Origin: Escherichia phage vB_EcoS_GZMU_E2010
Reading direction: 5' to 3' (one strand)
Length of the DNA: 44,255 nucleotides
Sequence record: PV845598.1
Made by a program: the position numbers and the translations under genes. The notes under the pieces are model-generated. The model did no database searches. It was not told the DNA's origin and saw only the letters and a program-made list of their open reading frames with translations. Each line of letters starts with the position of its first letter. Within the stretch, counting starts at the first letter, position 1. Positions 41,243 to 41,327 of this stretch are shown here, in pieces.

Positions 41243-41327
41243 TCCTCCAGGTGCGTATTAAGTATGCAGTAACTGGAGGATAGCACGGTTAGGAATTATC
41301 TTAATAACGGTTTATTTGTGCCTCCAG
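41243..41327 (-). promoter_or_regulatory. alternative RNA hairpins involving the holin SD
   Basis: Minus-strand RNA: anti-SD UCCUCCAG (41280-41273) can pair with the SD CUGGAGGA (41250-41243) or with CUGGAGG (41327-41321) in the last codons of the upstream gene. Confidence 0.4.

Follow-up and report, generated by a model that had tools for sequence, protein, structure and literature searches.

A conserved hairpin at the holin ribosome-binding site of Kagunavirus-type phages and their relatives, with a putative embedded promoter

The rate of holin synthesis sets the time of lysis, and hence burst size and fitness. Phages of the genera Kagunavirus, Jerseyvirus and Dhillonvirus are commonly isolated with therapy or biocontrol in view, and annotations of their lysis cassettes show no regulatory features. 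How, then, is the holin message of such a phage governed? Here we consider the first holin gene of Escherichia phage vB_EcoS_GZMU_E2010 (sequence record PV845598.1), together with the inverted repeat that precedes it on the minus strand. The whole stretch of DNA analysed, 44,255 nucleotides (nt) long, is referred to below as the window. At 80-95% identity the region has counterparts in 118 phage records, almost all of them from Kagunavirus-type (Guernseyvirinae) siphophages of Escherichia coli, and the window is a phage of this type. Among such phages, Bas70-72 of the BASEL collection, with E. coli K-12 as host, show about 90% identity to it in this region. The gene itself (40928-41236, minus strand) encodes 102 amino acids (aa) from a TTG start and falls into the holin family phrog_2359 (PHROG E 1.6e-29). 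In the phage Shashou it is annotated as a class I holin/antiholin with three transmembrane domains, and in Bas70 the boundaries of the coding sequence (CDS) are identical to those in the window.

The Shine-Dalgarno (SD) sequence of this gene is buried in a hairpin. An earlier note on this DNA had placed a GGAGGA SD ahead of the TTG start at 41236, with an eight-nucleotide complement upstream of it. The SD is found at 41248-41243, and Shashou carries an annotated ribosome-binding site at the homologous position. Read directly on the minus strand, UCCUCCAG occupies 41280-41273 and CUGGAGGA occupies 41250-41243, with a 6-nt spacer from the latter to the start codon. The complement is where the note had put it and is longer than was thought, as the helix that encloses the SD has nine base pairs (bp), 41281-41273 with 41250-41242. 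Its 5' (anti-SD) arm, AUCCUCCAG (41273-41281, minus strand), pairs with 41250-41242 in every fold, and the SD lies within the 3' arm, CUGGAGGAU (41242-41250, minus strand). The loop between them (41251-41272, minus strand) is 22 nt long and holds a weak inner helix of 3 bp.

Folding of a 40-nt piece gives -14.2 kcal/mol (z -4.6), a value equalled by none of 200 shuffled sequences. The SD helix also dominates in a 76-nt piece (-18.4 kcal/mol, z -3.1), and in a 116-nt RNA its pairs form with probabilities of 0.84-0.999. Opening the region from -18 to +3 around the holin start costs 16.5 kcal/mol, which ranks third among the 89 SD-bearing open reading frame (ORF) starts in the window (median 7.0); with longer context, the opening cost of the ribosome site is 10.4 kcal/mol. 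The stable fold, the high opening cost and the covariation described below uphold the earlier claim that the holin SD is sequestered by an upstream complement. The hairpin is real, well beyond chance, and conserved with covariation, and it plausibly controls expression of the lysis gene. A search of Rfam (E up to 10) across 40500-42000 returned two chance-level matches (E 2.5 and 5.8), neither of them at the hairpin. The hairpin of the window was also considered as an intrinsic terminator and ruled out: the loop is 22 nt long, the tail AUUCAUCUU is a poor U-tract, and a consensus scan does not call it.

Within Kagunavirus the hairpin is almost invariant. Forty IMG/VR loci encode the same holin at 79-98% identity and yield 31 distinct upstream segments. 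Both arms are unchanged throughout, save for a single A-to-G change in one 5' arm (L039) that keeps a G.U pair; the loop, the spacer between SD and start, and parts of the upstream block all vary. Thirteen of the 40 loci have a different gene upstream, an HslV-like protease in annotated phages, and an unchanged hairpin. In the Salmonella phage LSPA1 (L029; 1452-1494) several loop substitutions extend the helix to at least 13 bp, and the hairpin alone reaches -20.3 kcal/mol. In L025 a T-to-G change adds two pairs, again extending the helix into the loop. Some members have therefore evolved much stronger occlusion. A second copy of the conserved upstream block GTTATTAAGATAATTCCTA was not found elsewhere in the window, and the pattern TGNTATNNTCC was too loose for a window search to be informative.

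The gene upstream of the hairpin in the window is a 97-aa ORF (41312-41605, minus strand; phrog_9632, a family that assigns no function). It is replaced by the HslV-like gene in about a third of Kagunavirus relatives (L001, L003, L004, L009, L011, L013, L020, L021, L025, L034 and L035, upstream of position 1420; L043, 1004-1441). The mosaic junction lies at AAAC(C/A)..TATTA, just 5' of the conserved regulatory block.

Outside Kagunavirus, the homologous holin gene of other lineages is preceded by a hairpin at the same place and of different sequence. L058, with a holin 69% identical, pairs AUCCUCUGGUC with GGCUGGAGGAU around a 9-nt loop, with three internal G.U pairs. In Dhillonvirus HK578 the arms AGUCCCAGUGAG/CUUACUGGGACU form a 12-bp helix, followed by U6 and then by AUG. 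In Jerseyvirus the arms AAUCUCCGAAGG/CUUUCGGAGAUU are followed by the U-rich tail UUUUAUU and then by GUG, the last arm bases and the tail together giving an unbroken run of six U, and a second Jersey-like group (Jersey-2-type) has CUCCGUAUGG/CUAUACGGAG. The Otaku-like phages of Serratia and Enterobacter have GCCUCGG/CUGAGGC, GCCCCUG/CAGGGGU or GCCCCCGAAU/AUUCGGGGGU. A purine-rich, SD-like run lies inside the 3' arm in every lineage, and hairpin energies range from -9.6 to -20.3 kcal/mol (z -2.8 to -7.2). Arno18 (Ounavirinae) has no hairpin, and Pantoea phage Nafs113, which has the unfused order, shows a terminator, then TTATAAT, then a free ribosome site. For more distant holin relatives, a word-based protein search gave close ones only, and P0019 and P0022 gave no viral loci.

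Covariation was assessed in a gapless alignment of 18 distinct variants (A2). Each row joins the 16 nt that begin at the first base of a -10-like hexamer, described below, to the opposite 16 nt through an artificial GAAA linker. The only free parameter per sequence is the register, which is set by the minimum free energy (MFE) partner of one base. Pairing is seen in 83.8% of the cells of A2; in slid controls, where the 3' side is moved by 1-3 columns, the figure is 34-50%. Both sides have changed in 10 of the 13 pairs, and a single column can hold as many as four Watson-Crick types. A2 scores 0.62 for covariation, the slid controls score 0.18 or less, and none of 500 shuffles attains 0.62. A2 is biased towards structure because it is anchored on structure; even so, the many pair types and the comparison with the slid controls leave a helix conserved in sense-strand RNA as the only reasonable reading.

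These data also bear on the idea that the inverted repeat acts as DNA, binding a dimeric regulator, and not as RNA structure. Inverted repeats near promoter-like sequences can be operators, and co-evolution of half-site and regulator could mimic covariation. However, the spacing between the arms varies from 6 to 22 nt (6-13 nt in other genera, 9 nt in L058), and the 3' arm always coincides with the SD, ending 4-11 nt before the start codon in all variants. G.U pairs occur inside the helices and A.C mismatches do not, and internal G.U pairs point to sense-strand RNA rather than to a DNA operator. We reject the operator reading on the strength of the internal G.U pairs and the inconstant distance between the arms, and give it very little credence.

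If the hairpin is genuine, is it one half of a switch? The earlier note had proposed that ribosomes finishing the upstream gene toggle between two helices, with a third segment, CUGGAGG (41321-41327, minus strand), competing with the SD for the anti-SD arm. This segment is complementary over 7 bp to CCUCCAG at 41279-41273, the resulting helix and the SD helix are mutually exclusive, and the alternative is the minimum-energy fold for nascent RNA, though only for RNA ending before the SD arm. Three of the four CTGGAGG copies in the window (3.4 expected) also cluster inside this 85-nt stretch (41243-41327). Against this, the alternative is the weaker partner: the bare helices have energies of -8.5 vs -12.5 kcal/mol for the SD helix, and the ensembles of -17.5 vs -22.7 kcal/mol, a gap of 5.2 kcal/mol. 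At equilibrium in the 116-nt RNA the alternative pairs have a probability of 0.0. The folding that the note had suggested therefore yields the SD helix and not the helix with the upstream arm.

Conservation, which had been named beforehand as a test, divides in the same way, the hairpin being kept in relatives and the upstream arm not. CUGGAGG falls within the codons AUC-UGG-AGG of the 97-aa ORF, the last two of which are Trp-Arg, two codons before its UAA stop (41314-41312), and it does not belong to the element. In the 27 loci that share this upstream ORF, the segment reads CUGGAGA in 14, CUGGCGU in 10, and CUGGCGC, CUGGAGG and CAGGAGA in one each. The changes in the Arg codon are synonymous (AGA, CGU, CGC) and include two-base changes that destroy the pairing; the Trp codon is fixed. 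The 13 loci with another upstream gene lack the arm and keep the hairpin, as do Jerseyvirus, Dhillonvirus and Otaku-like phages, whose upstream genes are unrelated and hold no such arm. Moreover, a ribosome terminating at the upstream stop codon, 31 nt short of the anti-SD arm, cannot reach the hairpin itself. The complement exists at the position the note gave, and the toggling built upon it is contradicted by these results; a three-arm switch is highly unlikely. Chance is the best explanation of the third arm, which arises from Trp-Arg codons.

What remains is a hairpin that buries the SD, and the question of how the holin would be translated. Part of the answer may lie in the 5' arm, which is overlapped by a putative extended -10 element, TGcTATCCT (41277-41285, minus strand; TG at 41285-41284, hexamer at 41282-41277), recognised by comparison among relatives. 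In sigma-70 promoters the -10 hexamer is best conserved at T-12, A-11 and T-7, and TGn is the extended -10 motif. Every one of the 18 variants has a TA...T hexamer (TATCCT, TATAGT, TAATCT, TAACCT or TATACT) whose offset from the helix core is constant; it abuts or overlaps the 5' arm, and it persists in Otaku-like lineages, where the whole hexamer falls outside the helix. TGn precedes it in 15 of the 18, and the three variants that lack TG have a near-consensus TATACT with TTGCAG at 18-nt spacing. In 42 Kagunavirus sequences the TG and TATCCT are invariant, and the base between them is among the most polymorphic nearby. A weak -35-like hexamer, TTAAGA (41299-41304, minus strand), matches four of the six consensus positions 16 nt upstream of TATCCT; in relatives it is polymorphic at one position, TTA(A/G)GA, and we count it as weak evidence.

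From these features we infer promoter activity and a transcription start at A41270 (minus strand), the seventh nucleotide past the hexamer and 3 nt beyond the anti-SD arm. Of the 18 variants, 17 have a purine at this seventh position, which is located either in the loop or at the 3' end of the 5' arm. In every lineage an RNA begun at the predicted start would lose the 5' arm. For an RNA that starts at A41270 in the window, opening the ribosome site is computed to cost 6.4 kcal/mol, down from 10.4. For the short RNAs of HK578, S100, L074, L076 and L084 the cost falls from 16-20 to 3-8 kcal/mol, a drop of up to 15. Scored with a rough home-made position weight matrix (PWM), the site comes 50th among the 88,438 positions of the window; in 11 of the 12 relatives scored, all but L076, it tops the -80 to -20 zone. 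A scanner calls the pre-holin hairpins of HK578 and L084 terminators, and just 0-6 nt separate their ends from the start codon; any dedicated promoter would thus have to lie upstream, with its start inside the hairpin.

The model we favour, which we rate at about an even chance, resembles that of T4 gene e, with an occluding hairpin and an embedded promoter that makes a translatable short RNA. RNAs reading in from the upstream same-strand cluster would fold the hairpin and block ribosome binding at the first holin. In Dhillonvirus, Jerseyvirus and some Otaku-like phages the hairpin with its U-tract would also terminate such read-through RNAs. With these RNAs silent or terminated, the holin would therefore not be made from upstream transcription. 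Instead, a weak host-type promoter (sigma-70, extended -10), TGcTATCCT over the 5' arm, would start an RNA at about A41270. Lacking the anti-SD arm, this short RNA could not form the hairpin and would serve as the translatable holin message. The element would in this way insulate the lysis clock from upstream transcription, and the dedicated weak promoter would set the rate at which holin accumulates.

In its broadest form this becomes a proposal about one compact module, present before the holin across Guernseyvirinae (Kagunavirus, Jerseyvirus, Otaku-like) and Dhillonvirus. It would combine an SD occluder, an intrinsic terminator (in several genera) and a host-type extended -10 in the 5' arm, and would insulate both transcription and translation so that the lysis clock depends only on its own weak promoter. 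We advance this generalisation tentatively, at a little below an even chance.

Several points weigh against an embedded promoter. A strict sigma-70 scan calls no promoter at this place in the window, HK578, S100 or L084, and the promoter idea therefore rests on the extended -10 reading together with comparison. The published PhagePromoter list for the Kagunavirus fBC-Eco01 has no promoter before its holin. The -35 region is poor (TTAAGA at 16-nt spacing), and the gain in accessibility from the short RNA is modest in the window, at 4 kcal/mol. The invariance of the hexamer is partly by construction, because hexamers were picked by eye as TA...T anchors, and the lineages share ancestry and hence are not independent samples. 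A sigma-70 promoter without a regulator gives no obvious late timing. Transcript mapping or expression data for Kagunavirus or Jerseyvirus were not found in the searchable literature.

In another account the hairpin is a constitutive attenuator with no internal promoter. All holin mRNA would then be read-through RNA that carries the hairpin, keeping translation low and delaying lysis; in some genera transcription would be lowered as well, and breathing of the helix would yield what little holin is required. This account fits the hairpin and its covariation just as well, and neither consensus scans nor the published in silico list calls a promoter here. Weak start codons, TTG in this phage and GTG in Jerseyvirus, point to selection for low output. 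In lambda, moreover, the rate of holin translation sets the lysis time, and a stem-loop limits access to the SD (bioRxiv 10.1101/2025.05.14.654169). However, the account leaves unexplained the TA...T at a fixed offset, usually with TG, even outside the helix. In HK578, Jerseyvirus and L084, furthermore, a strong helix of 10-13 bp with a U-tract directly at the start codon would allow almost no transcription or translation, leaving little route to holin. We regard constitutive attenuation as unlikely, though it is the most probable of the alternatives.

A trans-acting factor could also resolve the occlusion. A phage or host factor would open, cleave or read through the hairpin late in infection and so license holin translation; candidates would be an antiterminator acting at the -10-like sequence as a pause site, an RNA-binding protein, a helicase or an RNase. 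A terminator before the holin recalls lambdoid late operons, the -10-like hexamer could be a sigma-dependent pause element, and a conserved small palindrome lies 10-35 nt upstream (GGATAATTCC, GGATAAATCC or GATTAATC). Yet no candidate factor was found, the neighbouring genes being without informative family matches in Pfam and PHROG. Antitermination alone would leave the SD buried, and a helix of 9-13 bp is too short for a typical RNase III substrate. Activation by such a factor is improbable on this evidence, and the hairpin with a putative embedded promoter is still the reading we favour.

The small palindrome deserves description in its own right. It lies upstream of the -10-like hexamer in all Guernseyvirinae lineages, at 41291-41302 on the minus strand of the window, and reads AAGATAATTCCT in the window, AGGATAATTCCT in most Kagunavirus, GGATAAATCC in Jerseyvirus and GATTAATC in Otaku-like phages. 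In Kagunavirus and Otaku-like phages 9-10 nt separate it from the hexamer, and in Jerseyvirus about 32-34 nt. In L001-L040 it stands about 45-35 nt before the holin start, and it is also present in L060-L088. In many relatives it folds as a hairpin of 5-6 bp. A protein-binding site is one possibility, the conserved terminus of the upstream module another.

A second, near-palindromic motif, TGAATAGTAnCCTATTAT, is absent from the pre-holin site and present at six other sites in the window, where 0.08 copies are expected: 437-454, 4066-4083, 4110-4127 and 43136-43153 on the plus strand, and 22492-22509 and 31620-31637 on the minus strand. At least two copies overlap the -10 region of strong promoter-like sites (plus strand 4125; minus-strand TATAAT near 43150). 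The fBC-Eco01 paper lists this motif among 'phage RNAP promoters'; these phages encode no RNA polymerase. We would sooner take the motif for the operator of a phage regulator acting on a set of promoters. The lack of it before the holin is a slight hint, and the only one, that the putative internal promoter may be of a later temporal class than the promoters upstream.

The holin lies in a long minus-strand cluster of small genes starting at about 43150, and gene boundaries in annotated relatives are as in the window. At the head of the cluster a terminator (43282-43261) is followed by a promoter region near 43150. The terminator consists of UACGCUGCU/AGCAGCGUA and a U-tract (43261-43282, minus strand), and the TATAAT that follows (about 43149-43154, minus strand) overlaps one copy of TGAATAGTAnCCTATTAT. 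Between 43261 and 41282 a scan of the minus strand found no terminator-like site.

Downstream of the first holin lies a second holin-like gene (40663-40935, minus strand; 90 aa; phrog_2508 holin, E 1.9e-33). Its ATG overlaps the end of the first (ATGAATGA, 40928-40935) and it has its own GAGGAGG SD just upstream; it may therefore be translationally coupled to the first holin or initiated independently. The endolysin (40200-40688, minus strand) is a 162-aa protein of the lysozyme family (Pfam PF00959, E 9e-27), and the same 162-aa CDS is annotated in Bas70.

The cassette is closed by a terminator-like hairpin, ACCCGGA/UCCGGGU with a U-rich tail (40041-40070, minus strand); Shashou also has an annotated terminator after the endolysin. 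A strong promoter found by the promoter scan follows it, TTGACA-17-GATACT (40008-40036, minus strand). A second terminator-like hairpin, AUCCCGGC/GCCGGGAU with U7 (39937-39968, minus strand), was missed by the terminator scan because its loop is 9 nt, and it precedes a second strong promoter-like site, TTGACT-17-TATATT (about 39886-39913, minus strand). The two promoters correspond to HP5 and HP6 of fBC-Eco01, HP5 being the homologue of TTGACA-17-GATACT. Regulatory signals thus bound the lysis cassette.

Elsewhere in the window, a tight AGCCCC-GAAA-GGGGCU hairpin lies between two large genes (34298-34313, minus strand), before the ATG at 34287. Its 3' arm contains the only SD-like run before a 630-aa ORF, and its opening energy of 15.7 kcal/mol ranks fourth among the 89 starts. 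It may be a second occluded ribosome site or an mRNA stability element.

For phages used in therapy and biocontrol, a conserved and covarying hairpin at the holin start, probably with an embedded promoter, provides a concrete handle on lysis timing, open to test by mutation. The covariation across genera is unusually clean, and the idea of an embedded promoter is directly testable. If true, this would be a second, independent case of the T4 design in which a promoter sits inside the inhibitory hairpin, and the principle of gene e would extend to holins and to phages wholly reliant on host RNA polymerase.

How does the element compare with systems already known? A description of it in these phages was not found in the searchable literature. 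The nearest parallel is T4 gene e (lysozyme), the translational control of which was reportedly described by McPheeters et al. in 1986. In T4, and by prediction here, a lysis gene lies downstream of earlier same-strand transcription, and the long transcripts form a hairpin that buries the ribosome-binding site. The same arrangement of a promoter inside the hairpin is documented for T4 genes e, soc, 49 and I-TevI (PMC3014915). The differences are fourfold. The gene here is a holin, whereas in T4 it is an endolysin. The putative promoter here is a host sigma-70 extended -10, whereas the T4 late TATAAATA promoter needs gp55; as the element is host-type and not gp55-dependent, no timing mechanism follows from the sequence. 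In several genera related to this phage the hairpin is also terminator-shaped. Finally, the promoter here is predicted from sequence.

A looser likeness is to lambda S, where an upstream stem-loop ('sdi') acts together with dual-start control (bioRxiv 10.1101/2025.05.14.654169). In lambda a stem-loop just upstream of the holin limits access to a G-rich SD, and the present hairpin would do likewise. The lambda structure, however, splits initiation between two AUGs (Met1 for the antiholin, Met3 for the holin), and the holin families are unrelated. A dual start of the lambda type was considered for the present gene and set aside: it reads TTG GAT AAA TTT ACT GAA ACA GTG, with no second start within 2-3 codons, and the GTG at codon 8 has no SD.

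More generally, the anti-SD:SD helix is of the kind found in generic SD-sequestering hairpins. Three-arm attenuators, which add an anti-anti-SD segment, are a further point of reference, and a third complementary segment does exist in this one phage. It is neither conserved nor energetically competitive, so that the alternative pairing that is the hallmark of such attenuators is absent. The last comparison is with terminator-then-promoter pairs, such as the hairpin at 40070-40041 and the TTGACA-17-GATACT promoter that close this lysis cassette. These halt incoming transcription and restart it from a dedicated promoter, as is proposed before the holin; there, however, the putative promoter and the hairpin overlap instead of lying in series.

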